Position numbers and translations under genes: made by a program. A stretch of DNA of 40,847 nt. Origin: Gammaproteobacteria bacterium. GTDB taxonomy: Bacteria > Pseudomonadota > Gammaproteobacteria > Natronospirales > REEB76. Location of the stretch: the NCBI GenBank assembly GCA_050739495.1, contig JBOIBL010000104.1, forward strand, positions 1 through 40,847, in the 5' to 3' direction. The notes beneath the pieces were generated by a model, which was given only the letters and a program-made list of their open reading frames with translations, was not told the origin of the DNA and did no database searches. This document shows positions 840 to 19,240 of the stretch, piece by piece (the first letter of the stretch is position 1; every line of letters starts with the position of its first letter).

Positions 840-1064
840 GTCACAACCTACTCTAATATCTGAGAACGAATAGCGGCCGGATAATCAGAACGACAACATA
901 AATCCACTTACCATTTTACAGATTTTGTGAATGCAACCCTAAAATTCAAGATTTCAATTTGATGGCGACAGAAGGCGGACGGCACAAGGACCACGGCGAG
1001 CTTGATGGTACTCCATTTTTTTTGAAGGGGGGCACGCCCGCACTCCCGAAAGTCTGTAACACTC

Positions 1065-1093
1065 TTGACATGATTATCACATAGGGCTAAATA
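1065..1093 (+). promoter_or_regulatory. candidate sigma70 promoter for the AraC-family gene
   Basis: TTGACA (1065-1070), a 17-nt spacer, then TAAATA (1088-1093). It lies in the AT-rich 841-1225 intergenic region, about 130 nt upstream of the ATG at 1226. Pattern match only. Confidence 0.3.
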
Positions 1094-1225
1094 TCTCGTT
1101 ATATATATAAAGTCCCCGACATGAAATACAAAATTTAGGTAGTCGAGTTTGGTTGTGGAGTCCGGATTTACCCACGACCATTAAGAACAATGGCTTTATG
1201 AAAGTATCAAAATCTGGGGTATGCG

Positions 1226-2137
1226 ATGCTGCAAACCATTCGGTTCCCACCGCCCTGCTCGGTTGAGCAATTCCCGAATTACATGGTCAGTGCGCCCCGC
1301 ATTGTCAGTACCGGGCGCGGCTGGACCGGCATTACTGCCCGGGTTTACGACCTGCCCGCTAACCCTGAAGTAGTCTCACTACCGGCGGTAGATGATTTCT
1401 GCATCAGCCTACGCCTTTCCAAGACTCCAATGGATGTCGAGCGTTCATTCGGCGGCCTGTTCAAAAAAGCGCGTGTGACCGAAGGCTCGATCAGCTTTGT
1501 GCCCGCGAAATCCGCCGTGTCGTGGCGTTCTGATGAGCCGCTTAGCGTCATGCATATCCATATCAGCCACAGTTTCCTGCAAAGTCATTTGAGCGATGCT
1601 ATTCAGGATCACTGCGTGGACCGAATTGAATGCCTGGATATGCTGGGCATAAGGGATGAGATGCTATGGGAACTTGGACGCGGGTTTTTGTCTGAAATGA
1701 CGACTCCAAATATGCAGGACAGGCTATACGTCGAGTCCCTGGGCCACATGATTGCCACTCACCTGATGCACCGCTACGCCATCGACTTGAAGCGGCAGCC
1801 TGGTTTGCCGCTGACCTTGTCACCTTCCGGCATAGATAAAACAATCAAGTTCATCGATGAAAATCTTGATCAGGACTTGAGTCTGGAGCAGTTAGCCAAC
1901 GTGGCGCATCTCAGCCTCTATTATTTCTTGAGGCAATTCAAAACCATTTGTGGCATGACGCCGCATCAATATGTGCTGAAGTCGCGTATCAAGCGTGCCA
2001 AGCACTTGCTTGCTGCCACCAGATATTCAATTGTCGAGATTAGCCAGATGACCGGTTTTGTGAGTCAGAGCCACTTTGCCAATGTCTTCAAGGCTCAAGC
2101 TGGAGTAACGCCGAGAGCATTCCGGCGCAATCGCTAA
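1226..2137 (+). CDS. AraC/XylS-family transcriptional regulator
   Basis: 303-aa ORF. The C-terminal double HTH is typical of AraC/XylS (LSLEQLANVAHLSLYYFLRQFKTICGMTPHQYVLKSRIKRAKHLL...GFVSQSHFANVFKAQAGVTPRAFRR). The N-terminal ~190 aa form a sensor-like domain of unknown ligand. An alternative start is Met20. Confidence 0.85.
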   Translation: MLQTIRFPPPCSVEQFPNYMVSAPRIVSTGRGWTGITARVYDLPANPEVVSLPAVDDFCISLRLSKTPMDVERSFGGLFKKARVTEGSISFVPAKSAVSWRSDEPLSVMHIHISHSFLQSHLSDAIQDHCVDRIECLDMLGIRDEMLWELGRGFLSEMTTPNMQDRLYVESLGHMIATHLMHRYAIDLKRQPGLPLTLSPSGIDKTIKFIDENLDQDLSLEQLANVAHLSLYYFLRQFKTICGMTPHQYVLKSRIKRAKHLLAATRYSIVEISQMTGFVSQSHFANVFKAQAGVTPRAFRRNR

Positions 2138-2435
2138 ATCTTCTTCCCGCCTCTCTAAAGCGTTGAATGTGGCGTGCTCGCAACACGTCTATAGCACCGT
2201 TTTACCCTAATCAAGACTGAGACCTTAGTTCGCGCCAACACAGCAATTTCAAAATAAAAGTCGGCAACTATAGGCAAGTAATTGACATCCCTCGTGCCAC
2301 ACTTAAGCTGGTGCAAAACATCGCTAAGCAATTCAATCACATGTTGAAACTTGCTTGGCAATCTTAAAATTAATGGCAAATACGACAATAAAGCGACGAC
2401 CACGCCGGAGCTGAAGCACGTCGGAGGTATGGGTA

Positions 2436-3974
2436 ATGCAAAAAGCAACAAAGTCAGAAATTGGGCAGCAAGCGTGGCGTCGCTCGATAGCGCCGCTGAT
2501 AGCGCTGATTTTCATTGGTTTGGTAGGCACCTTGATGCCGGCCAAAGATGCCAATGCCTTACCGGCTTTTGCCCGCAGATACCATCTGGTATGCAACGCT
2601 TGCCACACCCGGGAACCACGGCTGAATGCCTTCGGTGAACGTTTCTTCGAGAACGGCTTTCAGCTGCCTGGATCCGAGGATGGCGATGTTGCCCATCAGA
2701 TTTATCTCGGCAACACGGTCAATCACGCCGCGCTGAATGACGCATCGAATTATTTCGCGGTTCGCATACGTGGTCAGGCAGTTGACTATCAGTCCGATCA
2801 GCCCAGTGCAGACACTAACCGTCTGGATATCTCGCACATGATTCTGGATGGCTCGATATTTACCGCCGGTCCGATAACGAAAAATATCAGTTTCTTTGGG
2901 GAGTTTGCCGGGAGTACCCAGGATTCGGTGGTATTGAATACCGCGTCATTGCAATTCACGAATTTGGTCGGTTATCAGGATCTGAATGTGATCCTCGGAG
3001 CAGTCCAGACCGATGAATTCTTTGCTTATCCAAACGATCGTAACCAGATCAATTCATTGGATGGTTCCGAAGACGATAGCGGTTCTCCAGTCGGATACGA
3101 CCGTATTCCGATCGCACCGGCGGCATTCAACTTGAACATGTTTGGCCTGACCACAGGGAATGCCAACCTCGGGGCCGGAGGCGGCTTCGGCTTGTCTCCT
3201 TACGATCCCTTTGGCTTCAATGGTGGAGACAACGAAGAACAAGTATCGCTTTACGGCCGCCCATTCCAGGACAAGAGATTCCTGTACAGCGTGGGTTTGG
3301 CGCAGAACCATACGGCGGAAGATAACCCGCAGATCAGACACGATATCTTCGTATTGGCACGTTATGACTTTTTCCCGGGTGCTTACCAGGAGCTGGCCGT
3401 TTCCGGCTTCTACTACAAGGCGCCCAGTGCTGTCCGGGCAACGGTACCACTTGATCCGACCACCGATCCCGGAGACCCGGCTTGCACGACATTCCCCTGC
3501 TATCAATTGGGTCAAGTGGAAGATGTGGACAATTATGGCTTGGGCGCCAGGTGGTATACCGGGCCATTTGATATCTACTCGGCGCTTGTCTGGCACAAGA
3601 TAGATAGTCCCCGCTTCACTAACCCGGGTGCACAACAGGCCCAGTTCAAGAATACCGGGATGGGGTTCACGGTGGAGGCTGATTATCTGTTCAACGATAA
3701 GTGGCTTGGCGGGGTGCGCTACGACTATGCCAGCCCAGGCGGGCTGGAGAAGCTGCCACCATTGCTGCAGGGCACTGCACCCGAGATAAATCAGAAGTAT
3801 TCATATATCAATCTCCTGGCCAAATATTATCCGGCACCGAATTTTGCGATATACGGCCAGTTCACGCATAACCTCAACGGGACGAACCAGCTGCCATTGA
3901 TATTTGGAGGCGGCAATACGCCGGCGACAAATAACCGCAACGTGATTGCTTTCGGGTTCGACTGGGGCTTCTGA
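2436..3974 (+). CDS. cyc2: Cyc2-like fused monohaem cytochrome c / outer-membrane porin (copy A)
   Basis: GGAGG lies 9 nt upstream of the ATG. There is a signal peptide (...LMPAKDANA|LPAFARRY). A single CxxCH (CNACH, nt 2592-2606) follows right after the predicted cleavage site, in the context FARRYHLVCNACHTREPRLNAFGERF. The remaining ~450 aa are Gly/Asn/Tyr/Asp-rich with alternating beta-strand-like segments. The protein ends ...VIAFGFDWGF, a terminal-Phe OMP signature. The architecture matches Cyc2 of Fe(II) oxidisers as I remember it. Confidence 0.7.
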   Translation: MQKATKSEIGQQAWRRSIAPLIALIFIGLVGTLMPAKDANALPAFARRYHLVCNACHTREPRLNAFGERFFENGFQLPGSEDGDVAHQIYLGNTVNHAALNDASNYFAVRIRGQAVDYQSDQPSADTNRLDISHMILDGSIFTAGPITKNISFFGEFAGSTQDSVVLNTASLQFTNLVGYQDLNVILGAVQTDEFFAYPNDRNQINSLDGSEDDSGSPVGYDRIPIAPAAFNLNMFGLTTGNANLGAGGGFGLSPYDPFGFNGGDNEEQVSLYGRPFQDKRFLYSVGLAQNHTAEDNPQIRHDIFVLARYDFFPGAYQELAVSGFYYKAPSAVRATVPLDPTTDPGDPACTTFPCYQLGQVEDVDNYGLGARWYTGPFDIYSALVWHKIDSPRFTNPGAQQAQFKNTGMGFTVEADYLFNDKWLGGVRYDYASPGGLEKLPPLLQGTAPEINQKYSYINLLAKYYPAPNFAIYGQFTHNLNGTNQLPLIFGGGNTPATNNRNVIAFGFDWGF

Positions 3975-3989
3975 TTCGGAGGACAAAAA

Positions 3990-4844
3990 ATGAAAATTTG
4001 TCGCAACACTCTAAGCGGGATCGCGATAGGTATGTTGGCCATGATCGCGGGATTCTATGTGCCATGCACATCGGCGGCGGACTCCAATGATGCGGCTGCC
4101 AGCTATTTGCCGATCGAGCCATCACCATACACAGACAAACCTGCTGATAATGCCGATGCGCAAGCCGAAGGCAGACTGATTTTTGAGCGTGGATGTGCGC
4201 TTTGTCATGGAATGGATGGCAAGGGAGATGGCCCCACGGCCTATTTCATAGGCCGTAGTTCCGGACCACGCCCCCGCGACTTCACTTCCGGAACCTTCAA
4301 ATTCCGTTCAACCGAAAGCGGCGAATTGCCGACCGATGAAGACCTCTTCCGCACCGTTAGCGAAGGCATCCCCGGATTCATGCCGGCTTATGGAGGTTTA
4401 TCGGTGGTCAACCGGTGGAAGGTGATTTATTACATCAAGACTTTCTACCCTGGGTTCAAGGATGCGAAGCCGGCGGTTATCAAAGTTGTCGGGCAACCAG
4501 CGATGCCCACCGTCGCGAGTATCGATCACGGGCACCAGTTGTACCAGCGGATGCACTGTTGGGAGTGTCACGGCGGCGGTGGCGAAGGCGATGGATCGAA
4601 AGCCCCGACTCTCAAAGATGACTGGGGGATGCCGCTACCACCGGCCAACCTCACGTTGCCGCAATCGTTCAAGAACGGTCATCGTCCAGTGGATATATAC
4701 ATGACCATCATGACCGGCCTGAACGGTACCCCCATGCCCTCCTACAGCGACCTGTTCCAAGGCCATGAACAGGATGCGTGGGATCTGACCAATTACATAC
4801 TGTCGCTGTCTGCGGATGGGAGCGGTAAGCAAAAGGATTACTGA
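3990..4844 (+). CDS. periplasmic dihaem cytochrome c
   Basis: GGAGG lies 7 nt upstream. It has an N-terminal signal or anchor helix and two CxxCH motifs (CALCHG, CWECHG). Each is followed by a Met-containing segment (GIPGFMPAY; GLNGTPMPSY). It is clearly paralogous to residues ~280-520 of the 7144-8862 product. Confidence 0.85.
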   Translation: MKICRNTLSGIAIGMLAMIAGFYVPCTSAADSNDAAASYLPIEPSPYTDKPADNADAQAEGRLIFERGCALCHGMDGKGDGPTAYFIGRSSGPRPRDFTSGTFKFRSTESGELPTDEDLFRTVSEGIPGFMPAYGGLSVVNRWKVIYYIKTFYPGFKDAKPAVIKVVGQPAMPTVASIDHGHQLYQRMHCWECHGGGGEGDGSKAPTLKDDWGMPLPPANLTLPQSFKNGHRPVDIYMTIMTGLNGTPMPSYSDLFQGHEQDAWDLTNYILSLSADGSGKQKDY

Positions 4845-4901
4845 AAAATCGGGTCGATCAATCAATAAAATCTCCACTCACTCTCATTCTGGAGCATTGA
4901 A

Positions 4902-5630
4902 ATGAAGGTTTTCTTCAGCGTGTTCATGATCGGTGCAACCACCATGCTGTTTTCGCCGCAGACCGCCCTGGCCTATGCAGGGGGTACGGTGACAAAAGGC
5001 GGCACTATATCCGGGACGATATCTTTCAAAGGCACGCCTCCCGCGGAACCGATCATACAGGTTGATAAGAACATCGATTACTGTGGCAAAACCATTCCGG
5101 AAGACTGGTACGTAGTGAATAAAAAGGATGAGGTGGCAAATGCCGTAGTTTTGCTTGAAGACATTTCGAGCGGAAAACCCATCGACAAGAGCGCCGTCGT
5201 CCAGTGGGACAATCACAAGTGCATGTTTGATCCCCATGTGGCGATAGCCGTGGCCGGGCAGACACTGGACATCAAAAACAACGACCCGATACTGCATAAC
5301 ACGCATTTTCACATGATGCCATCTGGTCGCACGTTGTTTAACGAACCGCTGCCATTCAAAGGTCTGTCGATCAACAAGAAGCAACCGATCGCGCACCCCG
5401 GGGTCGTGAAAGTTACCTGCGATGCACATCACTGGATGCTTGGGTATATCTATGTCAATGATAATCCGTATATCGACAAGACCGGTGACAATGGGCATTT
5501 TGAATTAACCGATGTGCCACCGGGCACATACACATTGAAAATATGGCACGAAAAATTTGGAGAACATGAAGAGAAGGTTACGGTAACAGCAGGAGGAAAA
5601 GTTACCGTAAATTATAGTTTCTCAAAATAG
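4902..5630 (+). CDS. periplasmic cupredoxin-like (type-1 copper) protein with a C-terminal CarboxypepD_reg-like beta-sandwich
   Basis: Signal peptide (MKVFFSVFMIGATTMLFSPQTALA). It has DPILHNTHFHM (compare amicyanin or plastocyanin HNV/HNI). About 40 residues later comes VTCDAHHWM, which has the Cys-x2-His-x2-Met spacing of the amicyanin copper loop (nt 5418-5438). The C-terminal GHFELTDVPPGTYTLKIWHEKFG resembles carboxypeptidase-regulatory-like domains. Confidence 0.6.
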   Translation: MKVFFSVFMIGATTMLFSPQTALAYAGGTVTKGGTISGTISFKGTPPAEPIIQVDKNIDYCGKTIPEDWYVVNKKDEVANAVVLLEDISSGKPIDKSAVVQWDNHKCMFDPHVAIAVAGQTLDIKNNDPILHNTHFHMMPSGRTLFNEPLPFKGLSINKKQPIAHPGVVKVTCDAHHWMLGYIYVNDNPYIDKTGDNGHFELTDVPPGTYTLKIWHEKFGEHEEKVTVTAGGKVTVNYSFSK

Positions 5631-5725
5631 CAGCGATATTTCCCGCCCTCATATACCCACATGTACGAAGGGCCATGCGCTGCTATCGCAGTGTCAAGAT
5701 ACGCTTTTAGTCAGGAGTTAGACTA

Positions 5726-7147
5726 ATGCCAAATCCAACGACTCCCTCTGCATCTTTATCTAACCTCGACGAACTCATCGATCGCCCTGTCGTGATCCAG
5801 TGGCTGGCGTGGGGTCTGTTCTGGTTGATGATAGGACCGTCTATCGGCGCACTTATCTCGACGCAATTTGTCTATCCTGACGTCACCGGCACGTGGTTGC
5901 CGCTGCAATTCGGTAGATTGCGCCCTATCCACGTCAATACGGTGGTGTACGGCGCCTTCTCAGGACTGTTCATCGGGTGTGTGCAGTATCTCCTGCCGAG
6001 ACTTACCGGCGTCAGGATTCCCTGGCCACGTGTCAGCCGGCTGATGGTGTGGATCTGGAACCTGGGTATATTGTTCGGCGATCTTAGCCTGGCCGCGGGT
6101 TATAACCAGGGTCTGGAGGTGGCCGAATACCCGCTGATCATCGATATATTTGCCTTCGTGGGTCTCTTGACCCTGACGATACAGTTCTTGTTGGCGATAG
6201 GGCGGCGCACGCATCAGGATGTCTATGTGAGTCTCTGGTATCTGATGGGGGCTTTCGTATGGACATCGATGAACGAGATCTTAGGCAATTTCATCGTCCC
6301 CTATTACATTCCAGGCATAAATAACGCGGCCTTTCACGGCCTCTACCTGCATTACACCGTAGGCCTCTGGCTGACACCGGCAGGTTACGTGCTGATCTAT
6401 TACTTTCTGCCGGCGAGCGTCAAGAACCCGATATACAGCCACAAGCTTTCGATGATCGGATTCTGGTCTTTAGCGCTGTTTTATCCATTCGTGGGTATCC
6501 ACCATTATCTCTATAGCCCAATCGCGGACTGGGCGGAGACGTTAGCGATTATAACGTCGATGTTATTGATTATTCCGGTATGGACCGTATTGCAGAACTT
6601 CTTTGGAACGATGATCGGAAGGTGGCATACCTTTAGCAACAATCTTCCAGCAAAATTCCTGATTATCGGGTCGATTATGTACCTGCTGGGCTGCTTCCAG
6701 GGATCGACTGAAGCTTTGCGATCCATCCAGAAGCCGACGCACTTCACCGACTTCGTGATCTCACATTCTCACCTGACCGTATTCGGTACTTTCGTGATCT
6801 GGGCGATCGGAGGAACCTTGTATGTCTGGCCAAAGATGTTTGACCGAGAATTGTATTCGTTCAAGCTGGGCAACTGGTCGTTCTGGCTGATCACGATAGG
6901 CATATCTACCATGGGTGTCGTCCTCAGCGCCCAAGGGTTGCAGCAGGGATTCATGTGGATGAACGGCACCGAATGGATCGATTCGCTCGTACCCATGAAG
7001 CCTTTCTGGATCGTACGGACCCTGGCCGGCATATCGATGGATATGGGCATGAGTCTAATAGTGTTCAACCTGATGATGACGGCCCTTTCACGTGATGACA
7101 AGAAAACCAGTGCTTCGGGCGCTGTCGTCGGGGGGGCTGCGTCATGA
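5726..7147 (+). CDS. ccoN: cbb3-type (C-family) haem-copper oxidase subunit I, divergent CcoN
   Basis: AGGAG lies 9 nt upstream. The product is 473 aa and polytopic. Ligand motifs line up with the canonical CcoN motifs as I remember them. These are RPIHVNTVVYG (haem b His) and YLHYTVGLWLT (vs YGHNAVGFFLT, CuB His). Also FYPFVGIHHYLY (Tyr-x5-HH, vs YIWAGPHHLHY) and FVISHSHLTVFG (vs GHVH, haem b3/b His). Confidence 0.85.
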   Translation: MPNPTTPSASLSNLDELIDRPVVIQWLAWGLFWLMIGPSIGALISTQFVYPDVTGTWLPLQFGRLRPIHVNTVVYGAFSGLFIGCVQYLLPRLTGVRIPWPRVSRLMVWIWNLGILFGDLSLAAGYNQGLEVAEYPLIIDIFAFVGLLTLTIQFLLAIGRRTHQDVYVSLWYLMGAFVWTSMNEILGNFIVPYYIPGINNAAFHGLYLHYTVGLWLTPAGYVLIYYFLPASVKNPIYSHKLSMIGFWSLALFYPFVGIHHYLYSPIADWAETLAIITSMLLIIPVWTVLQNFFGTMIGRWHTFSNNLPAKFLIIGSIMYLLGCFQGSTEALRSIQKPTHFTDFVISHSHLTVFGTFVIWAIGGTLYVWPKMFDRELYSFKLGNWSFWLITIGISTMGVVLSAQGLQQGFMWMNGTEWIDSLVPMKPFWIVRTLAGISMDMGMSLIVFNLMMTALSRDDKKTSASGAVVGGAAS

Positions 7148-8862
7148 AAAGAGCAAGAACAGTCGTTCTCGTAGCCGGCTTCGGATTTTTCTTTCTGGCC
7201 GTATTTACCCAGGGTTTATTGCCCGCGATTCAGCCTCAATCACGCTATACCAAGGTATCGCGGGCAGTGCGGACCGATCGCGGCGATATGAAATGGATGT
7301 ACTCCAATGCCACCGACTACACCCCACTGGAAGCAAATGGGCGGGCCGTCTATCTGCGCGAGGGTTGCTGGTACTGTCATTCGCAGTACGTTCGGCCGGT
7401 CACGGGAGAAACTCTGCGATGGGGGCCGGTATCTGAGGTCGGTGAATATGCCTTCGATCAGCCGCATCTGCTGGGAACCCGCCGCATCGGACCCGATCTG
7501 ACCCGCGTCGGCGGCAAATACAGCGATGGCTGGCATCTGGCTCATTACTGGAACCCACGCATGCTGACACCGGACTCCATCATGCCGCGTTACAAACACC
7601 TGTTTGAAGGTGAATGGACCGCGGATGTGGTAACCGACTCACAGGGCCGCAAGACATTGCAGCAGGATGAAGAGACCAGGAAGCTGTTCGATTTCGGCAA
7701 TAAGGTTACTTTCAACCTGACTCCCAATCAGGATGGCCTGTTGTTTGTGCCTGATGATGCGAAGGGAAAATACCCGATAATCTTCACACCAAATAATGAA
7801 TTTACCGGCAAGCAGGTACATTTCGTTACCGAGAGCGATGACCTGCGTGGTCTGGTGGCATACGTGCAAAAGCTGGGCATGAACAGGGGTAAATGGCGCG
7901 ATACTTTCGAACCGCAGCTGCTGACCATAGAATCGCTTTCCATTCCTGAAGATCCCGAATGGATAGACGATGGCAAACGGATTTACGAGCACCGTTGCGA
8001 GGGTTGCCACGGCGCGAAGGGTGACGGAAATGGCCCGGCGGCGACATTCCTGGCAGTGCGCCCAAGGAATTTCACGTTAGGCGAATTCAAGTTCCGTCAT
8101 ACGCCATCCGGTTCGTTGCCAACGGACGGTGATTTGTTACAAACCATTACCCGCGGTGTGCGGGGTACCGCCATGCCGTCGTGGCATATGCTTACCGAAA
8201 AAGATCGCCTGGCACTGATCCAGTACATAAAATATGATTTAGCGGTGGACCGAAGCGACCCAAAACACCCGGTATCGTATTTCGTCGAAGATCCGCCGGA
8301 ACAACCGATATATATAGGTCTTGTTCCGCAAGCTACAGATGAAGTGATCGAGCACGGCCATGACATCTACCAGAAAGCCCGTTGCTGGGAATGTCATGGC
8401 AATGACGGTGCCGGCGATGGCCCCAAGGCAAACACACTTACTGACGACTGGGGATTCCCCATCGAGCCGGCAAATTTCGTTAAAGGTATTTTCAAATCCG
8501 GTCCATTGGTCACGGATATCTACCGCACGATTACGACCGGACTCAATGGCACACCGATGCCTTCTTACCACGACATTCTTGGTGACGATGACCGATGGGC
8601 GCTGTCTTATTACGTGCTTACCTTCTCGGCGTATCGTGCACCCGGTACCGGTGACCCGTTGGCAATATCGGAAGCTGATCGCGCAGCCCTCGACGATCCG
8701 GACATGCCGGCAGCCAGCCCGGCTGATGCGTACAAACCGTCCGAACAGAAGTTTGGTAAGGCTCCGGATGTTGCTTTGATACGGAATCTGGGTATGAAAA
8801 CTCTGGTGCCGTCAGCGAATTCGAAACCCGCTCCTGCCGCTGCCCAGGAAAAACCGAATTGA
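7144..8862 (+). CDS. ccoO: CcoO (monohaem subunit II of cbb3 oxidase) fused to a C-terminal dihaem cytochrome c (CcoP-like role)
   Basis: ATGA overlap with the ccoN stop. The N-terminal TM helix and REGCWYCHSQYVRP...PHLLGTRRIGPDLTRVGGKYSDGWHLAHYWNPR...SIMPRY...LVAYVQKLG make up a complete CcoO module (aa 1 to ~250). Two further CxxCH motifs follow (CEGCHG, CWECHG). The protein ends in a Pro/Ala-rich tail. Confidence 0.85.
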   Translation: MKRARTVVLVAGFGFFFLAVFTQGLLPAIQPQSRYTKVSRAVRTDRGDMKWMYSNATDYTPLEANGRAVYLREGCWYCHSQYVRPVTGETLRWGPVSEVGEYAFDQPHLLGTRRIGPDLTRVGGKYSDGWHLAHYWNPRMLTPDSIMPRYKHLFEGEWTADVVTDSQGRKTLQQDEETRKLFDFGNKVTFNLTPNQDGLLFVPDDAKGKYPIIFTPNNEFTGKQVHFVTESDDLRGLVAYVQKLGMNRGKWRDTFEPQLLTIESLSIPEDPEWIDDGKRIYEHRCEGCHGAKGDGNGPAATFLAVRPRNFTLGEFKFRHTPSGSLPTDGDLLQTITRGVRGTAMPSWHMLTEKDRLALIQYIKYDLAVDRSDPKHPVSYFVEDPPEQPIYIGLVPQATDEVIEHGHDIYQKARCWECHGNDGAGDGPKANTLTDDWGFPIEPANFVKGIFKSGPLVTDIYRTITTGLNGTPMPSYHDILGDDDRWALSYYVLTFSAYRAPGTGDPLAISEADRAALDDPDMPAASPADAYKPSEQKFGKAPDVALIRNLGMKTLVPSANSKPAPAAAQEKPN

Positions 8863-8875
8863 CGGAGCTTAATAT

Positions 8876-9058: not shown

Positions 9059-9251
9059 TCCGAACCGGAAAGGTGACGTCAATAAGAGTGATCCAGCTGA
9101 TCATCTCGAGGAGTTTGCCCAGGGCGAGATAAAGGTCAGGCACGGGAAAATCAATCTGTGGTTGCTGCCGGTTTACGCGATACTGTTCATCTGGGCCATT
9201 TATTACCTGTTCGTCTATTGGGGCGGATTGGGTCCGGGGTTGGATTACTGA
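9042..9251 (+). CDS. small membrane protein resembling the N-terminal (FixP_N) domain of CcoP
   Basis: I chose the start at Met14 of ORF 9003-9251 because GAGGAGG lies 6 nt upstream. It overlaps the ccoS 3' end by 17 nt. The product is 69 aa. It has a soluble stretch (...EFAQGEIKVRHGKINLWLLPVYAILFIWAIYYLFVYWGG) followed by one TM helix, as in the CcoP N-terminal anchor (DGIxE..N.lPrWW..lF..tI.fa..Y). Confidence 0.5.
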   Translation: MTSGPDPNRKGDVNKSDPADHLEEFAQGEIKVRHGKINLWLLPVYAILFIWAIYYLFVYWGGLGPGLDY

Positions 9252-9307
9252 GTGCGTAATTCGGATTCTGACGTATTGCACGATATCAATCGGTGTGAGG
9301 AATCGAC

Positions 9308-9442
9308 ATGAACAAACGGGTCATTAGAGCATTACTCATCTTCACGCTATTCAATTTGACCTATCTGGTTTTTGATATCTTTTACAATGTCCTGGGTGTG
9401 ATCTTTCACTGGGGAGGATTTCCGTCCGGCGGTTTGCTTTGA
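9308..9442 (+). CDS. 44-aa hydrophobic micro-protein (hypothetical)
   Basis: Not in the ORF track because it is under 60 aa. GAGGAA lies 5 nt upstream of the ATG. My translation is MNKRVIRALLIFTLFNLTYLVFDIFYNVLGVIFHWGGFPSGGLL. It has one predicted TM helix and lies within the cco maturation gene string. Confidence 0.35.
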   Translation: MNKRVIRALLIFTLFNLTYLVFDIFYNVLGVIFHWGGFPSGGLL

Positions 9443-9493
9443 GGCGGGCACTTATCCGATCCACGTGCACGGCGTGAAGAGAGGCTCATATAC

Positions 9494-9586
9494 ATGAACA
9501 TCTACGAAAAGATTGCATTTGGACTGTTTCTTGCATTTACGATCATCTTTTTCGCCTGGGTGGCTTACCTCGCTATCAAGAAGTGA
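9494..9586 (+). CDS. 30-aa single-TM micro-protein, possibly CcoQ-like
   Basis: Not in the ORF track. GAGAGG lies ~9 nt upstream. The translation is MNIYEKIAFGLFLAFTIIFFAWVAYLAIKK. Its stop is 3 nt before the next ATG (9590), which suggests translational coupling. The FFAWVAY...KK ending resembles the FixQ/CcoQ helix. Confidence 0.35.
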   Translation: MNIYEKIAFGLFLAFTIIFFAWVAYLAIKK

Positions 9587-9589
9587 CCG

Positions 9590-10264
9590 ATGCTCCAATA
9601 CCTGCTGGTCTTTGTTGCCGGTATGGCCGGCAGCTTTCATTGCGCTGGCATGTGCGGTGGCTTTGCCTGTGGTCTGACCCCGGATCCAAGAGGGAAACTT
9701 CATACCAGCCTGCGCCATTTTACCTATAACAGCGGTCGTGGCATCACGTATGTCTTTCTTGGCACATTCGCGGGTGTTACGGGCGGGTTTTTGCAACGCG
9801 GCGGGATCATTTTTGCGGAACGGACACTGGCTCTAACCGCCGGTCTGTTCATGGTGCTGATGGCCTTGAAGATCAGCGGTTATCTCGCCCATATCGGTAT
9901 AACCAGAACAGAAGCTACTGCAGGCCGGTTCCTGATTTTCTTCCGACGCCTTTTGGCAACGCCAGGGGTGAGCGCGCCGTTTGCATTCGGGCTGGCGAAC
10001 GGATTTCTCCCCTGCCCCTTGGTATATGCATTTCTGGCGCGGGCCGCGGCCACTGGAACACCATTGACCGGCGCTGCAACCATGGCCGCATTTGCGCTCG
10101 GCACGTTTCCCATGATGCTACTTCTGGGGGGGCTGGGGCCGGTGCTGCGCTATCAATGGCGGAAACGCGGCGCGGGAGTTGCTGCCGTCTTTCTGCTCCT
10201 ATTGGGCGTTATAACGGCTCTGAGGGCCTTTATTCCGCTTCAGATGCACATGCACATGGTATGA
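9590..10264 (+). CDS. DsbD_2 / TauE-SafE-like polytopic membrane protein (HCxxMCGG motif)
   Basis: 224 aa with about 6 TM helices. The N-terminal MAGSFHCAGMCGGFACG motif is characteristic of the DsbD_2-type cytochrome-biogenesis/permease family often found next to ccoI/ccoS. It overlaps the ccoI start by 4 nt. Confidence 0.55.
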   Translation: MLQYLLVFVAGMAGSFHCAGMCGGFACGLTPDPRGKLHTSLRHFTYNSGRGITYVFLGTFAGVTGGFLQRGGIIFAERTLALTAGLFMVLMALKISGYLAHIGITRTEATAGRFLIFFRRLLATPGVSAPFAFGLANGFLPCPLVYAFLARAAATGTPLTGAATMAAFALGTFPMMLLLGGLGPVLRYQWRKRGAGVAAVFLLLLGVITALRAFIPLQMHMHMV

Positions 10265-12357
10265 ACAGTTGCGCTCATTGCGGACTTCCAGCGGGTCACC
10301 GCCCATACGAACGCCGGATCGGGGGCGAGGCAACGGTGTTTTGCTGCTATGGCTGCTGTCTGGCCATGTTGCTCATGCGCGGCCGCGGCGATGAAGCCAA
10401 TGTGGCAGGACACCTGATTCGTCTGGGAATCGGTGTCTTTTTCGCGATGTTTATCATGCTTCTCAGTCTGGTCATATACAGTGGTTCCATTCCGGCAGAG
10501 GAACCTTCCCTTCGTCACTATGTGGATGTAATCCTGCTGGTACTTGCTACGCCAGTGGTGGTCCTGCTCGGTGGACCGTTCTTCCTTGGTACTTGGAGCG
10601 GATTGCGGCATGGCCGGATGACAAGTGATGCTCTGGTCGTTACCGCGGTACTGGTAGGTTATCTGTATTCGGCTTTCCAGGTATATATCGGCTCATCTCG
10701 CGTCTATTTCGATACCTTGACCATGGTGCTCTTGCTGTTCACATTGGGACGCTATCTGGAAGCATTGGGCCGTGCACGCGCCAATGGTGATCTCGAGGAA
10801 GCACTCGACCTCGGGCGGCAAATGGCGCACGTTGTCGAAGATGGAAAGACACGCAACATACCGGCATCGGAAATCGATTCTGGTTGGCTGATAAGCGTGC
10901 TTGCTGGAGAGCGGATACCCGTTGATGGCACCATCATCAGCGGCACCGGTGACATAGATGAAGCAATGCTCACGGGCGAATCAGTGCCGGTAGACAAGCA
11001 ACCCGGCGATATGGTGCAAGCCGGTTCGATCAACGGCATGGATACGTTGCTAATACGTTGCGCCCGACCGCTTGCTGCGTCCCGCTGGGCAGCCTTGGGG
11101 AGTCTGGTACGCCAGTCTCTGGCGCGGCGCTCTCCACTCGAAGATGTTGCGGATCGCATTGTCGGGTGGTTTTTACCGACAGTTTTGCTGGTTGCAGCGT
11201 CAGCCGTTTGCTACTGGTTTTATGACGGAGATCCAACGCGTGCCTTATCTAGTTGCCTTGCGGTACTCGTTGTCGCTTGCCCATGCGCACTCGGTCTTGC
11301 CGTGCCACTGGCTTCCTCCATGGGCGTTGCCGCGGCCCTGCGTCACGGTGTCGTCATCCACCGTGACGCGTTGGGAAGATTACCGTCTATCAGAGCTGTG
11401 GCGTTCGATAAAACCGGCACCCTCACGCGCGGTCACCCAACGCTCAGCCGGGTAGTCGCGTTCCCCGGCTTTTCGTCCGATGCTGTCATGGATATTGCAG
11501 TAACACTCGCCGTCGTTTCTGAGCATGTGCTTTCCAGGGCCATTGCAACTTCATCCATGCCGCAGGGAGACGCCGTCAATGTACGCACCTATCCCGGGTT
11601 TGGAATCGGCGGAGAAATAAATCGGCGACATTGCTCGATTGGATCACGTCGATTCATGGAGCAGCAGAAGATCGAGACTCCCGCTGGCGGTTACCACCGT
11701 GGCACCGAGATATGGGTGGCAGCAGGAAACAGTATCGCGGGCAAGATAATGTTGCACGACGCGCCCAGGCCGGAGATTCCGGACGTAATCGCGTGCTTGA
11801 AAGCCAAGAAAATTTATCCGGTGATATTAAGCGGCGATAACCCAGAGGCAGTTTCTGAAATCGCCAGGCAGGTGGGCATCGAAAAATATTTCGCCGAGAT
11901 GCGACCTGAAGACAAGTTGAGGGAACTATGCATTCTCAAAACTAAATACAAGCATATAGCAATGGTCGGGGATGGAATCAATGATGCACCGGTTCTTGCT
12001 GCGGCCGAGATAGGCATCGCAGTCGCTGACGCGTCAGGACTTGCGAAGGTATCTTCCCAGATCATGTTGCCACATGACGGGCTGGGTCAGTTGCCTTATC
12101 TATTTGAGCTCGCCAGCAAGGTAAGGCGCGTATCCGTCGATAATTTACGCTGGGCATTTTTTTATAATGTAATTGCTATCACGCTGGCTGCCGGTGGCCT
12201 TTTACAGCCGGTCTATGCAGCATCCTTGATGGCTGGTTCTAGTCTCATGGTGCTGCTCAATTCACAACGCCTACGACGTGATGCTGGGTATCCATTGAAT
12301 CAAGCTGCGAGAGATGCAGGCTACCGAACCGGTTGGAGCGAAGACCATGCTGGCTAA
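10261..12357 (+). CDS. ccoI: P1B-type copper-translocating ATPase, CcoI/FixI-like
   Basis: I moved the start to the ATG at 10261 ([10 protein letters not shown]...), which makes an ATGA overlap with the upstream stop. The N-terminal Cys-rich metal-binding domain (CAHCG...FCCYGCC) is typical of FixI/CcoI. Other motifs are TGESVPV, the membrane CPC ([13 protein letters not shown]), DKTGTLT and [10 protein letters not shown]. Confidence 0.85.
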
Positions 12358-12679
12358 TGAAAAACTTGGCATCTTGGGAAATGACAATCCCACAAGCCCT
12401 TCACCCGCTTCCATGAGCGCAGATGAAACAATTTCGGCCATGAACGGTCTGGCTTGTCGGAAACGGGATCTTTTACTGACTAGAGCAACACGCAAACTCG
12501 CAAACGGCCAACCTGCCGATATCGTTCTTGAGAGGTTTGCCAGCCAGTTAACAAACTCATTATTGCATCCAGTCCTCGCCTGTTTGCGTAATATACCTGA
12601 TGAGATGAATCAGAAGCGCCTTCTGGAAGAAGTATGTGAATTATTCAATTTGGCGACAGCTGATCGAGATGAAAAATAG
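12347..12679 (+). CDS. small protein homologous to the C-terminal dimerisation domain of glutamyl-tRNA reductase (HemA); a stand-alone domain or a hemA remnant
   Basis: GGAG lies 8 nt upstream of the ATG at 12347, which overlaps the ccoI stop. The sequence ...[45 protein letters not shown]...[12 protein letters not shown] aligns by eye with HemA C-termini (e.g. E. coli ...[41 protein letters not shown]...RLNILRDSLGL). No catalytic or NADPH domain is present upstream. Confidence 0.45.
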
Positions 12680-12692
12680 CGATTGAGCTGCG

Positions 12693-13409
12693 TTAGCCGC
12701 CATTGCCTTGTGTTTCGTCATGTTCATTTGCCGGCTCGATACGCCCCCTGAAGCGTTCGACATCGATTTCCTTCGGAGACTTCCCCACCAACTTGGCCTG
12801 AGCAGGCCGGGTTTGCTGGGTCAACTGATAAGGCACGACCCATTTGTATGGTGCTGCGTTGGGCTGGGCACCAAGATGATAGACCCACACTGTGAGTGTG
12901 TCGTGCCCATGCAATTTATCAAACGTTGGACCGTCAATGAGTGCGACCAGCGTATGCCCTGGCAACAGGTCTGGAAGTTTGATCGGTTGCGACAAGACAG
13001 TCTGACCATCCAGATCAAATGCACAAATGCTGTGATCGGTATCCAGAACTTGCTGCGAATTGTTGGTAAACGTGAGTTTTATGACCGGTTCAGGCGGGTT
13101 GTTTTTGTAAAATGGAATCCGATACACGATATAGAGTTTTGGCGGATTAGGCATCATGAAGTAATCGCCGTTTACCCGTGAAGTTATCTCATATCGATAA
13201 TAGAGTTCAGGAAGATTGTCTCGAACATTGAGATTTGCATGTAACCCATCCTGATCTTGTGGTTGTGTTACATCGCCGAATTTGAGGGCCTGTGCCTGAA
13301 TTTGCACGGGGTAGGAATCGGGTAAAGGAGTATCTGAGCCCTGTTCCGTTATGCAACCGGCGGTGAAGATACTGATGGTCACCGCAAGTAAAATCCCCGA
13401 TTTGTGCAC
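12693..13409 (-). CDS. lipoprotein, function unknown
   Basis: GTG start with GAGGAG 8 nt upstream. It has a lipobox-type signal (MHKSGILLAVTISIFTAGC|ITEQ). I recognise no family. Confidence 0.6.
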   Translation of the reverse strand: MHKSGILLAVTISIFTAGCITEQGSDTPLPDSYPVQIQAQALKFGDVTQPQDQDGLHANLNVRDNLPELYYRYEITSRVNGDYFMMPNPPKLYIVYRIPFYKNNPPEPVIKLTFTNNSQQVLDTDHSICAFDLDGQTVLSQPIKLPDLLPGHTLVALIDGPTFDKLHGHDTLTVWVYHLGAQPNAAPYKWVVPYQLTQQTRPAQAKLVGKSPKEIDVERFRGRIEPANEHDETQGNGG

Positions 13410-13423
13410 GATACAATCTCCTC

Positions 13424-13469
13424 AAAAAAACAGGCACCACCTCCGGCTGGTCAAGCCGAAGGTGGTGCC
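13424..13469 (-). terminator. rho-independent terminator between the cytochrome c gene and the lipoprotein gene
   Basis: On the minus strand, GGCACCACCT (13469-13460) pairs perfectly with AGGTGGTGCC (13442-13433). Five further inner base pairs follow, around a 5-nt loop. A TGTTTTTTT run follows (plus-strand A-run 13424-13430). Confidence 0.75.
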
Positions 13470-13492
13470 CCGTGAATGCAACCGCGGGTTGC

Positions 13493-13840
13493 TTATTTCT
13501 GCAAATCACCGCGGATGTAACTGACCACAGCTTTCAGGTCGGCGTCTGAAAAATGCCATGCAGGCATCGCGACTGGCAGGTCCTTGTATTTTTTCTGGTC
13601 ACCGCTACGTCCATTCTGGATGGCCTCATCAATATCCGCGATCTTGCCATTAATCACAAATGGATCGCCTTTCAGTGCAGGAGCGAGCCCCGGCGTGCCT
13701 TGACCATCCTTGCCATGGCAACTGACACATTTGGAACCAAAGATATCCGCCCCCGATTCTGCATATGCGGTGGAGGAAAAGACCAGAATCAGGCTGGCAC
13801 CGAGCAGAGCCGATATCAACTTGTTTCTATGCGCCATCAT
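13493..13840 (-). CDS. periplasmic monohaem class I cytochrome c
   Basis: 115 aa with a signal peptide (...VFSSTAYA|ESG), one CxxCH (CVSCHG) and a distal Met region (LPVAMPAW). It is paralogous to the 15420-15830 product (shared ...NGR.G....Y.D.P..MP.....DL....YI/LKGD). Confidence 0.85.
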   Translation of the reverse strand: MMAHRNKLISALLGASLILVFSSTAYAESGADIFGSKCVSCHGKDGQGTPGLAPALKGDPFVINGKIADIDEAIQNGRSGDQKKYKDLPVAMPAWHFSDADLKAVVSYIRGDLQK

Positions 13841-13861
13841 TACACCTGTTTATGGTTTGGT

Positions 13862-15352
13862 TTAGAAACCATAATCTAATATGAATGACCACGAATATCC
13901 ACCACTGCGGTAATCAGCCTGATTCAATACCGGCGTCTTGCTTGGACTGTAGTTCAAGCTGATGTTCACATTCATGGCAGGTGCCCAGAGACCGGATATT
14001 CCCCACTCGCTCGGCGCATACGCCGCGTATTTGACTCCGGTCGGCGCTGTATAGTCATAATGCAGCGCTTTATTGACATACACTTCAAATCCATAAGTGC
14101 GATTGTAGAAGTAGCGGATCGTATATCCTATCTTTTGCTGGCTAGAGGATGCGCCGCTCACATAGTCCTGGTTATTTTGTGCTATTGCGACACTCTGATA
14201 CCAGGAGTGGTTACCCATATCAGCTACCGACTGATGCCACGAAAGGCGCCATGCATGGCTGGTGTCGACCGTCTCATAGCCAGTAGTGTTCACCGTCGCC
14301 AGATCACCGAGGGAAGACCACTGGTAGCCGAGTCCGTTATTGAAACCGAAATTAGTGGAAGAAATTCCGGTGGGACATGCCGCAGAACAAACGAAACTTG
14401 TGTGAGTACCATTTACCTGGGAGCCCACATTATTGCCCCAGACACCGTCCAGGACCCACCACATGTCGTTGCTTTCCCTGCGGAATTTATCGCCAGTCCC
14501 CGGAATACCGTCATAGGCCAAGGCGATGTAGTTGTTATGTCCGTTACTGAAAGAACTGTCCGCATCTCCCGAGATTATCGAATACTGCGTCAGGATACTG
14601 TTCTTCCAGAAGCCATAGAAACTGTAACTGGCAGTCGAATATTCTGTGCCTAATCCACCTTGCCCGTAACCCCAAGGCCGTATCTGATCCACCGGGAATA
14701 CGAACTCGTTGATGGCATCCGGATACTCGTTACCGTAGGCCATGGCAATGAAACTATCCCCATCGCTGAGCATCCTGCTGGCGGTGAGCCGATATTCGTC
14801 GTAGGCAAACAGATTCAGGTTGGTCGGTTGACCCGGTGACTGGCCTGCCGTGGTGCTGGTATTGGCGGCTTTGATCGAGTTATTTCCCAGATAGCCAATC
14901 TCTGTCCAGACCCCAAGCCAATCTGTTACCGGACCGGTAAAGAAGAAGCAGAAGCGCGAACCGGGATTGGCCGTCACGTCCCGTTTGGTGCCGCCACCGA
15001 TACCGGGATTGGCACCCCCTGATGCGAAATCACTGATAAAACGCGCTGAAAGGAAATCATCCCAGTTCAGTGCCAGGTAGTTGCCACCGTATTCCGGGGT
15101 GTCCTGGCCCTGAGCGTTGAAACCCGTTTCACGGAACTTGCCATGTATGGAATTTGGTTGGTGAAAGCCACGCATGATGAAGAGTCGGCCGGTACGTGTG
15201 AAGTCCGGCACGTTCTCGAAACCGATATGGCAGGAATTGCAGTCGAGCCCAGTTTGACGTGCGTAGGACGGCATTGCGTTTGCCGTGCTAAACCAGCAGG
15301 CGCCGATCAACGTTAATATTACGGCACTTGCGCGAATCATGAACGTCTTCAT
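13862..15352 (-). CDS. cyc2: Cyc2-like fused monohaem cytochrome c / outer-membrane porin (copy B)
   Basis: I chose the start at Met14 of the track ORF (GGAGA 7 nt upstream). Signal peptide MKTFMIRASAVILTLIGACWFSTANA|MPSYARQTG. A single CxxCH (CNSCH, nt 15241-15227) sits at the mature N-terminus. The remaining ~440 aa are Gly/Tyr/Asn/Ser-rich and barrel-like, ending ...SWSFILDYGF. The PSYARQTG-x-x-C-x-x-CH context resembles the Cyc2 N-terminus as I remember it. Confidence 0.7.
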   Translation of the reverse strand: MKTFMIRASAVILTLIGACWFSTANAMPSYARQTGLDCNSCHIGFENVPDFTRTGRLFIMRGFHQPNSIHGKFRETGFNAQGQDTPEYGGNYLALNWDDFLSARFISDFASGGANPGIGGGTKRDVTANPGSRFCFFFTGPVTDWLGVWTEIGYLGNNSIKAANTSTTAGQSPGQPTNLNLFAYDEYRLTASRMLSDGDSFIAMAYGNEYPDAINEFVFPVDQIRPWGYGQGGLGTEYSTASYSFYGFWKNSILTQYSIISGDADSSFSNGHNNYIALAYDGIPGTGDKFRRESNDMWWVLDGVWGNNVGSQVNGTHTSFVCSAACPTGISSTNFGFNNGLGYQWSSLGDLATVNTTGYETVDTSHAWRLSWHQSVADMGNHSWYQSVAIAQNNQDYVSGASSSQQKIGYTIRYFYNRTYGFEVYVNKALHYDYTAPTGVKYAAYAPSEWGISGLWAPAMNVNISLNYSPSKTPVLNQADYRSGGYSWSFILDYGF

Positions 15353-15419
15353 GGTCGTGTCTCCGTAGAGAGGAAAATGCCCTTGACTCAAGGGTCCATT
15401 TTTCGGTGTTTGTCTGTAC

Positions 15420-15830
15420 TCACTTGCCCTGTTGCATGTCGCCTTTGAGATAGGCGATCAACGGGCGCAAATCCTGAATCATCGTGGCATCGAATGAAGG
15501 CATATCCGGATAGGTGTCGTCATAGTGCCGTTTCGCACCGGTGCGGCCATTGCGAATCACTTCCGCGATGGCGGTTTCAGGCGCATAGACGATGAACTGA
15601 TTGCCCTGCAGGGGCGGGGCTGTCGCCGGCAACTCGTGTCCCTTGGTGCCCTCTCCATGGTCACCGTGACAGGTTGCACAGCGTGCGTCGAAGATTGCCC
15701 GGCCAGCATCCTGTTCCGTCAGCGAGCTTCCGGTGGTCTGGTCTGCGGCCCGTCCCGGAGCCACAAAAATCACTACTGCGAATGCCGCTGTAGCGAGCAC
15801 GAATGATGCCAAAATCTTGGGGAGTCTCAT
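15420..15830 (-). CDS. periplasmic monohaem class I cytochrome c
   Basis: I chose the start at Met27 of the track ORF (GAGGAA 7 nt upstream). Signal peptide MRLPKILASFVLATAAFAVVIFVAPGRA|ADQ. It has one CxxCH (CATCHG) and a distal YPDMPSF. Confidence 0.85.
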   Translation of the reverse strand: MRLPKILASFVLATAAFAVVIFVAPGRAADQTTGSSLTEQDAGRAIFDARCATCHGDHGEGTKGHELPATAPPLQGNQFIVYAPETAIAEVIRNGRTGAKRHYDDTYPDMPSFDATMIQDLRPLIAYLKGDMQQGK

Positions 15831-16118
15831 GGCAATTTCCTCGGTAAGCGTGGAGTTCAAATGCCACCCGGTTAATGTAAAACCGGACACCGATCTGCGA
15901 TGTCTCATTGAGGTTAGATGATTTTAAAGTATTGTCAAGAACACGACATATTAATATAAATAATATTACATATATGCTCTGGCGTTGCAATCTCATGCAG
16001 CACAAAGGGTTTGGGCGTAGTAGAAAGGCAACAGCCGCCAATTCGGAATGATGGGAGCTGTATAAAGGCAGTCTGTATGCCAGAGCCTTGGTTTAGAGGC
16101 GTTATGGAGTGATGCTTA

Positions 16119-19028: not shown

Positions 19029-19047
19029 CTGCTCAGGAGACCAGAAA

Positions 19048-19231: not shown

Positions 19232-19240
19232 TTTTATATC

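Follow-up and report, generated by a model that had tools for sequence, protein, structure and literature searches.

Cytochrome and oxidase genes between ccmE and ccmF: probable stepwise gains in the ccm locus of an uncultured soil gammaproteobacterial lineage

The ccm genes are split by 15.3 kb

We analyzed a stretch of 40,847 nt, here called the window, from an uncultured gammaproteobacterium (GenBank assembly GCA_050739495.1, contig JBOIBL010000104.1), in which the genes for System I cytochrome c maturation (Ccm) are interrupted by genes for c-type cytochromes and a haem-copper oxidase. The genes ccmA-B-C-D-E occupy the minus strand (18933->16119; ccmA at 18933-18298, ccmE at 16571-16119), and the 5′ part of ccmF, 279 codons long, runs off the window on the same strand (839->1). 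Pfam matches cover all six proteins of this System I locus: CcmA (ABC_tran), CcmB, CcmC, CcmD, CcmE, and CcmF (Cytochrom_C_asm, 2.4e-48). An earlier note, made from the sequence of this DNA alone, had described ccmA-E as contiguous and mostly linked by 4-nt overlaps, with ccmF beginning at 839. This description holds: 3 of the 4 ccmA-E junctions overlap by 4 nt, and ccmB and ccmC are separated by 163 nt. The Ccm proteins are 92-100% identical in amino acid sequence to those of relatives whose loci run on into ccmG, ccmH, and ccmI, and the window's ccmF shares 96-98% amino acid identity with that of the relatives L082, L084, and L185, which are described below. Upstream of ccmA-E, the order uvrC-pgsA-tRNA (Gly, Cys, Leu) is the same as in all relatives. 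The three tRNA genes (19316-18940) stand beside ccmA, not at a block boundary, and were the only matches in an Rfam scan. The ccmB-ccmC spacer (17464-17626, minus strand), which has no Rfam match, folds better than shuffled sequence (z = -2.8); it is kept in L084 and L185 and is ~17 nt long in L082.

The interval between ccmE and ccmF measures 15.3 kb and holds about 18 genes in two convergent sets, whose stops (12679 and 12693) are separated by 13 nt. Six apocytochromes c are encoded, with nine CxxCH sites among them: one in Cyc2A, two in a dihaem protein, three in a FixO fusion, one in each of two monohaem cytochromes, and one in Cyc2B. At its ends lie two AT-rich spacers, one of 288 nt between ccmE and the first cytochrome unit (15831-16118, 43.4% G+C), and one of 385 nt between ccmF and a divergent AraC-type gene (840/841-1225, 42.1% G+C). 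In all these points, the open reading frame (ORF) listing, its translations, and the base counts agree with the earlier note. Several genes of the interval were missing from that note, namely those for FixS/CcoS, three small ORFs, a CarboxypepD_reg-like protein, a DsbD_2 membrane protein, a Cu P-type ATPase, a GlutR_dimer-like ORF, and a lipoprotein.

The orthologues are recognizable and in the canonical order of the ccmABCDEFGH(I) operons of E. coli and Pseudomonas, but contiguity and transcription as a single operon have been lost, as 15.3 kb, a conserved terminator, and a block on the opposite strand intervene. Among ccmF loci of distant relatives, taken from species-representative genomes, 76 of 80 had ccmE directly upstream, as expected. 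Three loci with a ccmF-like gene that lacks ccmE upstream were set aside: L041 and L073 resemble additional ccmF/nrfE-type copies in different surroundings, and in L064 the upstream genes are unrelated. In L008, ccmE and ccmF are adjacent and the gap sits between ccmC and ccmE. Dispersed ccm genes are known from the Rhizobiales and Rhodobacter capsulatus; consistent with this, L168 has ccmE-ccmF and no ccmABC match in the ~18 kb upstream, the only side covered.

The split at ccmE/ccmF therefore departs from the norm but has precedent, a point on which the earlier note needs revision. In Shewanella oneidensis, the region SO0259-SO0269 consists of ccmABCDE, scyA for a monohaem cytochrome, the ccmI homologue SO0265, and ccmFGH-SO0269, arranged in four separate operons (PMC3769277). 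There, too, a gammaproteobacterial System I locus is broken exactly at ccmE/ccmF, with a monohaem cytochrome c gene in the gap and the two halves in separate units. Shewanella differs in having two intervening genes and divergent ccm halves, whereas the window has ~18 genes (15.3 kb), ccm halves on the same strand, a Cyc2/cbb3 respiratory gene content, and a presence that varies among close relatives.

Gene content of the interval

The minus-strand part of the interval (12693-16118) is a small cassette. From the ccmE side, it begins with a gene for a monohaem cytochrome c of 136-162 amino acids, depending on the start chosen (15908/15830-15420; one CxxCH), followed by the gene for Cyc2B, a Cyc2-like fused cytochrome-porin (15391-13862), and by that for a second monohaem cytochrome of 115 amino acids, here called cytochrome c115 (13840-13493; one CxxCH). 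A strong predicted intrinsic terminator with a 17-bp stem and a T7 run follows (13470-13432, minus strand), and the cassette ends with a lipoprotein gene of unknown function (13409-12693), whose product has the lipobox FTAGC and no Pfam match.

The plus-strand block (~841-12692; 11.85 kb) lies on the strand opposite to the ccm genes and starts with a regulator gene of its own, for an AraC-family protein (1226-2137; Pfam HTH_18 and HTH_AraC). Next come the genes for Cyc2A, a fused monohaem cytochrome-porin (2436-3974), and for a periplasmic dihaem cytochrome c (3990-4844; two CxxCH, two Pfam Cytochrome_CBB3 domains), and then a CarboxypepD_reg-like gene for a secreted protein (4902-5630; Pfam), which is the conserved first gene of the oxidase cassette discussed below. 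The oxidase genes proper encode CcoN, the catalytic subunit of a cbb3-type (C-family) haem-copper oxidase (5726-7147; Pfam COX1, 1.3e-71), and a 572-residue protein in which CcoO (FixO) is fused to a dihaem cytochrome c domain (7144-8862; three CxxCH). Gene calls on an independent assembly of this region (L184) were mapped onto the window to place FixS/CcoS (8876-9058; Pfam FixS) and three small ORFs (9042-9251, 9308-9442, and 9494-9586). The block is completed by a DsbD_2-family membrane protein (9590-10264; Pfam, 1.5e-40), a CcoI-like Cu-translocating P1B-type ATPase (10261-12357, with the start from the L184 gene call; Pfam E1-E2_ATPase; TIGR01511, 1.5e-132), and an orphan GlutR_dimer-like ORF of 110 amino acids (12347-12679; Pfam, 4.3e-10).

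CcoN matched the Pseudomonas stutzeri subunit (PDB 3MK7_A) at 7.7e-57, far above its match to NorB (2e-6), and the histidines for haem b, haem b3, and CuB as well as the cross-link tyrosine of helix VII are all conserved. The curated equivalog cut-offs for ccoN and ccoO were missed (TIGR00780, 240 bits versus 583; TIGR00781, 141 versus 201). Because of the match to 3MK7_A, and because FixO, FixS, and the Cu-ATPase are encoded next to it, CcoN is assigned on sequence to the C-family oxygen reductases, as a divergent subfamily. The assembly genes ccoS and ccoI are adjacent; instead of a separate CcoO and CcoP, FixO and a dihaem domain are joined in one protein. The free-standing dihaem protein is a paralogue of this fusion, 45% identical to its residues 276-496 in the C-terminal half. 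The best solved relative of the fused dihaem domain (residues 272-494; window 7957-8625) is PDB 6H5L chain B (4e-58), deposited as 'conserved hypothetical cytochrome protein', which is a better match than any CcoP.

Both Cyc2 proteins have a single CXXCH near the N-terminus, preceded by a hydrophobic, signal-like segment. The published Cyc2 signature consists of AXPXFAR[Q/K][T/Y] upstream of CXXCH and PXL downstream of it (PMC8406198). Cyc2A follows it closely, with ALPAFARRY, three residues (HLV), CNACH, three residues (TRE), and PRL: the haem site is C53xxCH, PRL is present, and R takes the place of Q/K, so that the motif is essentially kept. A model of Cyc2A made with AlphaFold2, of moderate confidence (predicted local distance difference test, 63.5; predicted template modeling score, 0.69), has 16 beta strands and was matched by Foldseek to the 16-strand porins OmpC, OmpF, and PhoE (probability 1.0, TM ~0.6). 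Its nearest database relative is only 40% identical. Cyc2B has its one CxxCH at C51, in AMPSYARQT-GLD-CNSCH, ends in ...DYGF, and resembles Cyc2A in the cytochrome domain only (33% over 64 N-terminal residues).

Distant Cyc2B-like homologues travel as a cytochrome c-Cyc2 pair outside any ccm context. In L191 (3949-7486), L192, and L193, such a pair with 55-61% identity lies beside a gene for a high-potential iron-sulfur protein and an AraC-family gene. The AraC-type regulator of the window has a 38% identical, full-length homologue upstream of these pairs, which suggests a Cyc2-associated AraC subfamily.

The GlutR_dimer-like ORF at the end of the block has just 15 weak relatives among 1.84 billion representative sequences, mostly short stand-alone proteins, and its G+C content at third codon positions (GC3) is the lowest of the region (0.42). 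The ORF may be a remnant from the donor context or may encode a small factor connected with haem; the evidence speaks neither for nor against its derivation from a donor hemA gene.

Relatives of the window point to a stepwise series of gains

Using UvrC as a probe, the same neighborhood (icd-gacA-udg-uvrC-pgsA-ccmA...) was recovered from uncultured Gammaproteobacteria, mostly metagenome-assembled genomes (MAGs) from soil. Three states of the ccmE-ccmF gap were found among them. The two genes are adjacent in L086, L100, and L092. A single gene, encoding a 64-68% identical orthologue of cytochrome c115, separates them in L088 and L099. L082 and L084 have the order ccmE - cytochrome c - Cyc2B - cytochrome c115 - lipoprotein - ccmF, all on one strand and with no plus-strand genes. 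Relative to the window, UvrC is 89% (L082) and 86% (L084) identical, and six concatenated markers are 91% and 90% identical. A neighbor-joining tree of these six proteins gave 100% bootstrap support to the groups (window, L082, L084) and (L086, L088, L099). The locus L196 starts in the same way as L082 and L084; its 3.3-kb contig ends within the cytochrome c115 gene, before the lipoprotein gene and ccmF.

The most telling locus was recovered with a Cyc2B search. L185, a 28-kb metagenome contig from the Joint Genome Institute (JGI), is 94.8% identical in DNA to window 18166->12730, and its Cyc2B is 99% identical. Its lipoprotein gene is followed by 112 nt and then directly by ccmF-ccmG-ccmH-ccmI, with no block between them. 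L186, which represents the same lineage in a second JGI sample, agrees with L185 as far as its contig reaches. Orthologues of the lipoprotein are encoded in L082, L084, L185, and L186, and in these relatives the gene directly precedes ccmF.

As the minus-strand cassette occupies the same site in every close relative found (four other lineages and five loci: L082, L084, L185, L186, L196), it is, judged from this distribution, ancestral to the immediate clade. Conversely, since L185 lacks the block while its flanking DNA is 94.8% identical, the 11.85-kb block is best read as a recent horizontal gain, confined to the window's genome and acquired after a divergence at about species-boundary identity. 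In line with a recent gain, the CcoO fusion, Cyc2A, and the AraC-type protein have no close homologue in any collection (best identities 64%, 40%, and 44%, respectively). The synteny series thus supports the earlier note in that inserted DNA splits the ccm locus. It had treated the whole 15.3 kb as one inserted block, however, and this has to be given up: only the 11.85 kb is new.

Homology to L082, L084, and L185 ends at the variable 3′ tail and stop of the lipoprotein gene (~12730-12690) and resumes only ~10 nt before the ATG of ccmF, so that the ancestral lipoprotein-ccmF spacer (~112-150 nt) has been replaced. Within ccmF (1-839, compared with L185 5573-6411), identity is 79-89% over the first ~375 nt, 94-99% in the middle of the gene, and 83% in the last segment compared. 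This mosaic may hint at a recombination tract that arrived with the block.

Taken together, we consider it probable that cytochrome genes accumulated stepwise in the ccmE-ccmF gap of this uncultured soil lineage. The ancestral state would have been one contiguous run, gacA-udg-uvrC-pgsA-tRNA(Gly,Cys,Leu)-ccmABCDEFGHI. First, a small monohaem cytochrome c gene would have come to lie between ccmE and ccmF. In the window's clade, the gap would then have been filled by a same-strand cassette of 3.5-3.8 kb, with cytochrome c, Cyc2B, cytochrome c115, the terminator, and the lipoprotein gene. Finally, in the window's genome only, the 11.85-kb module would have been acquired horizontally and in opposite orientation, replacing ~100 nt of the lipoprotein-ccmF spacer.

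One could instead propose that all 15.3 kb are ancestral and that the relatives deleted the plus-strand block. That the clade inherited the minus-strand cassette from its ancestor speaks for this, as does the tetranucleotide signature of the block, given below, which is not atypical of its host. Yet this explanation, which we disfavor as very improbable, calls for at least three independent and precise deletions (in L185/L186, L082, and L084), each of which must leave behind a spacer that can be aligned and that holds the same (A/G)TGACC-17-TAAAAT element; moreover, no relative genome carries a close copy of any block gene, and both G+C and GC3 of the block lie below those of its flanks.

A second insertion or deletion between close relatives was seen elsewhere in the window. 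The genes for isocitrate lyase, malate synthase, and a LysR protein (window 24553-28700) are present in the window and in L084 and absent from the otherwise colinear L082.

ccmFGHI probably was a separate transcription unit before the block arrived

The terminator hairpin after the cytochrome c115 gene is kept, with compensatory changes in its stem, in L185, L186, L082, and L084, that is, in five genomes including the window. In the block-free relatives, a promoter-like element, (A/G)TGACC-17-TAAAAT, is found in the lipoprotein-ccmF gap, 87-90 nt upstream of ccmF; in the window, it has been lost together with the ancestral spacer. The conserved terminator and this element indicate that ccmFGHI was already transcribed as a separate unit when the large block came in. 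A transcript starting at ccmA or in the 288-nt spacer would cover the genes for cytochrome c, Cyc2B, and cytochrome c115 and end at the terminator, and in the relatives the lipoprotein gene and ccmFGHI would be transcribed separately from ccmA-E. From the second step onwards, ccmFGHI would probably have been driven by the promoter-like element at the 3′ end of the lipoprotein gene. Because this old spacer has been lost in the window, ccmFGHI would now start within the new spacer of 385 nt and 42% G+C, divergently from the AraC-type gene.

Two statements of the earlier note need to be qualified in this light. It had argued that the inserted genes forced ccmF to acquire its own promoter; ccmF is probably uncoupled from ccmA-E, but the relatives indicate that this uncoupling preceded the block. 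It had also concluded that clients of the Ccm machinery sit inside the Ccm operon, which is true by position but not in terms of transcription, as the block is read in the opposite direction and brings a regulator gene of its own.

Composition, boundaries, and assembly

The composition of the interval differs from that of its surroundings. The plus-strand block has a G+C content of 52.4% and the minus-strand cassette one of 51.3%, compared with 57.8% for ccmA-E and 57.5% for the next 19 kb, and GC3 is ~0.60 inside the interval versus ~0.69 outside. The cassette also lies 3.5-5 points under its flanks in L082, L084, and L185. The compositional signal is real but modest. The lower G+C suspected in the earlier note is confirmed at 5-6 points under the flanks, while the contrast of 43% versus 73% that it quoted came from single extreme lines. 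Elsewhere in the window, G+C jumps to 65-69% at 38000-40847 (an esterase gene and unknown ORFs), against ~57.5% for the rest; this may be another foreign segment.

With its absence from L185, L082, and L084, and with G+C lower by 5 points and GC3 by ~9 points, the block has features of a genomic island; the classical marks of one (integrase or transposase, repeats, tRNA at the boundary) were not found. Neither the block nor the interval as a whole is flanked by direct or inverted repeats, and the tRNAs are 2.8 kb away from the interval at its nearest edge and ~6 kb away from the block. The earlier note had likewise seen no integrase, transposase, or flanking repeats. Its statement that no tRNA adjoins is accurate for the block boundaries; the three tRNAs at 18940-19316 lie beside ccmA. 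As no mark of site-specific recombination was found, the block could have entered by illegitimate recombination, or by homologous recombination with a relative that already carried it.

A number of observations weigh against the series of gains proposed above. The order of the first step is ambiguous: since L086 and L100 lack the small cytochrome c gene, either two losses or two gains are needed, and the neighbor-joining tree does not settle the placement of L100. No donor of the block was identified: a scan of genome contigs with the CcoO fusion as single query protein and one of JGI metagenomes with Cyc2A gave no close relative, and the AraC-type protein matched JGI metagenomes in its helix-turn-helix domain alone (41-44%). 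Among signs of mobility, the search for boundary repeats and target-site duplications (1-17000) returned chance-level short matches only, and Pfam detected no integrase or transposase domain. The tetranucleotide z-scores of the block correlate with those of the host at r = 0.59, within the range of the controls (0.53-0.62), and are thus not atypical; for the cassette, the value was 0.42 (controls 0.45-0.63). A scan of 700-2500 for the sigma-70 consensus found no match in the ccmF-AraC spacer (841-1225). Lastly, the junction between ccmF and the AraC-type gene was seen in the window only, with no match in independent assemblies.

This last point bears on whether the arrangement is an artefact of assembly, that is, a chimera in which a foreign contig was joined into the lipoprotein-ccmF gap. 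For comparison, we used the independent Logan assemblies of run SRR27067709. Two of the three junctions were reproduced: that of ccmD-ccmE-cytochrome c-Cyc2B by L081, at 99.9% identity, and that of the lipoprotein with the GlutR-like ORF by L184, which covers the stretch from cytochrome c115 and the lipoprotein through the GlutR-like ORF and CcoI to CcoO at 99.97% identity over 6.9 kb (window 7105-14005). A further contig, L187, spans Cyc2A to the CarboxypepD_reg-like gene. For the third junction, exact-protein look-ups with two starts of the AraC-type protein and with Cyc2A found no record. A chimera would fit with this missing junction, with the co-existence of a 95%-identical, block-free population in public metagenomes, and with the 5′ 375 nt of ccmF matching L185 less well than the remaining gene does. 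It would require, however, two precise misjoins within one 112-nt spacer with both flanks colinear, and the lipoprotein/GlutR-like and ccmE/cytochrome c junctions are independently reproduced, which makes a chimera highly unlikely in our view.

The oxidase cassette is widespread and is found near ccm genes in several arrangements

The family of CcoO proteins fused to a dihaem domain is large, with at least 3620 database proteins at E <= 1e-10, of which the 120 best share the architecture. These are encoded in Cupriavidus, Ralstonia, Bradyrhizobium, Pseudothauera, Thiodiazotropha, and many MAGs, and all are 57-64% identical to the window protein. We compared 82 related loci from Alpha-, Beta-, and Gammaproteobacteria and Acidobacteriota. 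The fusion is encoded in all 82 and CcoN in 79; the small ORF orf82, DsbD_2, and CcoI are each present in 72-80 (orf82 in 80), and the CarboxypepD_reg-like gene in 59. A Cyc2A-like gene lies beside the cassette in 11 loci, mostly together with the dihaem gene. Four of these show the exact order of the window (L146, L153, L160, and, by gene presence, L163), three have the order Cyc2A-CarboxypepD_reg-dihaem (L156, L177, L179), and four carry Cyc2A on the opposite strand (L125, L134, L151, L178).

The plus-strand block is therefore, by gene content, a recognizable module, and its oxidase core a widespread cassette, sometimes with Cyc2 and often near ccm operons. It corresponds to an alternative cbb3-type cassette with the order CarboxypepD_reg - (Metallophos - SoxA-like cytochrome c) - CcoN - CcoO::dihaem - FixS - small ORFs - DsbD_2 - P1B-ATPase, carried by, e.g., Cupriavidus, Ralstonia pickettii, Bradyrhizobium, and Pseudothauera. 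The two share the gene order and the CcoO-dihaem fusion, and CcoN and CcoO are 57-73% identical. In the window, Cyc2A and the dihaem cytochrome c replace the Metallophos and SoxA-like genes, as they do in L146, L153, L160, and others; the AraC-type gene, the GlutR-like ORF, and the position inside a ccm locus are additional differences.

Genes for Ccm proteins were found within 10 kb of the cassette in 11 of the 82 loci, from various phyla and in at least four arrangements: the cassette is divergent from ccmA in L102, L103, L106, and L119, lies directly downstream of the ccm operon in L130 and L180, and is followed by ccmE-ccmF in L168, L169, and L172, or by only a ccmF-like gene in L145 and L152. 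By chance, less than 1% would be expected, a rough estimate for a random position in a 4-Mb genome that makes no phylogenetic correction.

These patterns raise the question of whether co-localization has been selected, with the ccmE/ccmF gap as a favored landing site, linkage that aids co-inheritance or co-regulation, and an AraC-type protein that co-controls ccmFGHI and the Cyc2A-oxidase operon. Cytochrome genes appear to have been gained at this gap at least three times in one lineage, and Shewanella has scyA in the same gap (PMC3769277); linkage of the cassette to ccm in 11 of 82 unrelated loci exceeds the rough chance value, and homologues of the AraC-type protein accompany Cyc2B-like genes elsewhere. 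Still, the ccmE-ccmF gap is not the site of any of the 82 cassettes, the linkage statistic ignores phylogeny, and scyA of Shewanella does not take part in maturation (PMC3769277). Separate transcription is favored by the conserved terminator, by the orientation of the block opposite to ccm, and by the regulator gene that the block carries, and a search of the three AT-rich spacers for a shared motif, such as possible AraC boxes, yielded nothing convincing. We therefore regard selected co-localization as doubtful. Its strongest form, in which ccmE/ccmF would be a selected accretion point for respiratory modules rich in haem c and the AraC-type protein would act, from the new divergent spacer, as common regulator of ccmFGHI and the Cyc2A-oxidase operon, seems to us somewhat less likely again.

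Proposed function and significance

In the model for neutrophilic iron oxidizers, electrons pass from Cyc2 via a periplasmic cytochrome c to a cbb3 oxidase (PMC7029218, PMC8406198). The window resembles this pathway in its Cyc2A with the fused cytochrome-porin signature, its adjacent mono- and dihaem c cytochromes, and its cbb3-type oxidase. By analogy, we infer an electron path from Fe(II) or another extracellular donor at the outer membrane to both Cyc2 units, periplasmic c cytochromes, the cbb3-type oxidase, and O2. In this scheme, electrons would enter at one or two sites in the outer membrane, travel on soluble mono- and dihaem carriers, and reach a dedicated high-affinity oxidase, which is encoded along with Cu and haem assembly factors; all nine haem c sites would depend on the surrounding System I.

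The window differs from the iron-oxidizer pathway in that its genes are nested in a ccm locus, and in that no protein in the databases shares more than 40% identity with Cyc2A. Further points tell against a role of Cyc2A and Cyc2B, which are putative Fe(II) oxidases, in iron oxidation: Cyc2B departs from the Cyc2 signature, with Tyr for Phe and no PXL at +4. The genome context of this uncultured soil lineage also looks heterotrophic, with the glyoxylate shunt genes for isocitrate lyase and malate synthase. The presence of these genes suggests that the host is a heterotroph that uses this chain facultatively.

Nothing known about Ccm is overturned by these results, as split ccm loci have been described before, among them one that is broken at ccmE/ccmF and contains a cytochrome gene there. 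Rather, the window and its relatives offer a natural before-and-after series for the disruption of an operon, in which near-identical genomes with and without an 11.85-kb respiratory module in an essential maturation locus can be compared. The genome with the block lacks the promoter-like element that probably drives ccmFGHI in the others, so that promoter replacement after insertion is directly testable. The locus also adds an uncultured and apparently heterotrophic lineage of soil Gammaproteobacteria to those with 'iron oxidation' cassettes of Cyc2 and alternative cbb3 genes, and suggests that such cassettes move at the strain level. Finally, the widespread and little-studied CcoO::dihaem oxidase cassette may be linked to ccm operons more generally. 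In the strongest form of selected co-localization, which we think unlikely, this linkage across phyla and the repeated capture at ccmE/ccmF would reflect selection for inheriting or regulating the maturation machinery together with the clients that burden it most.

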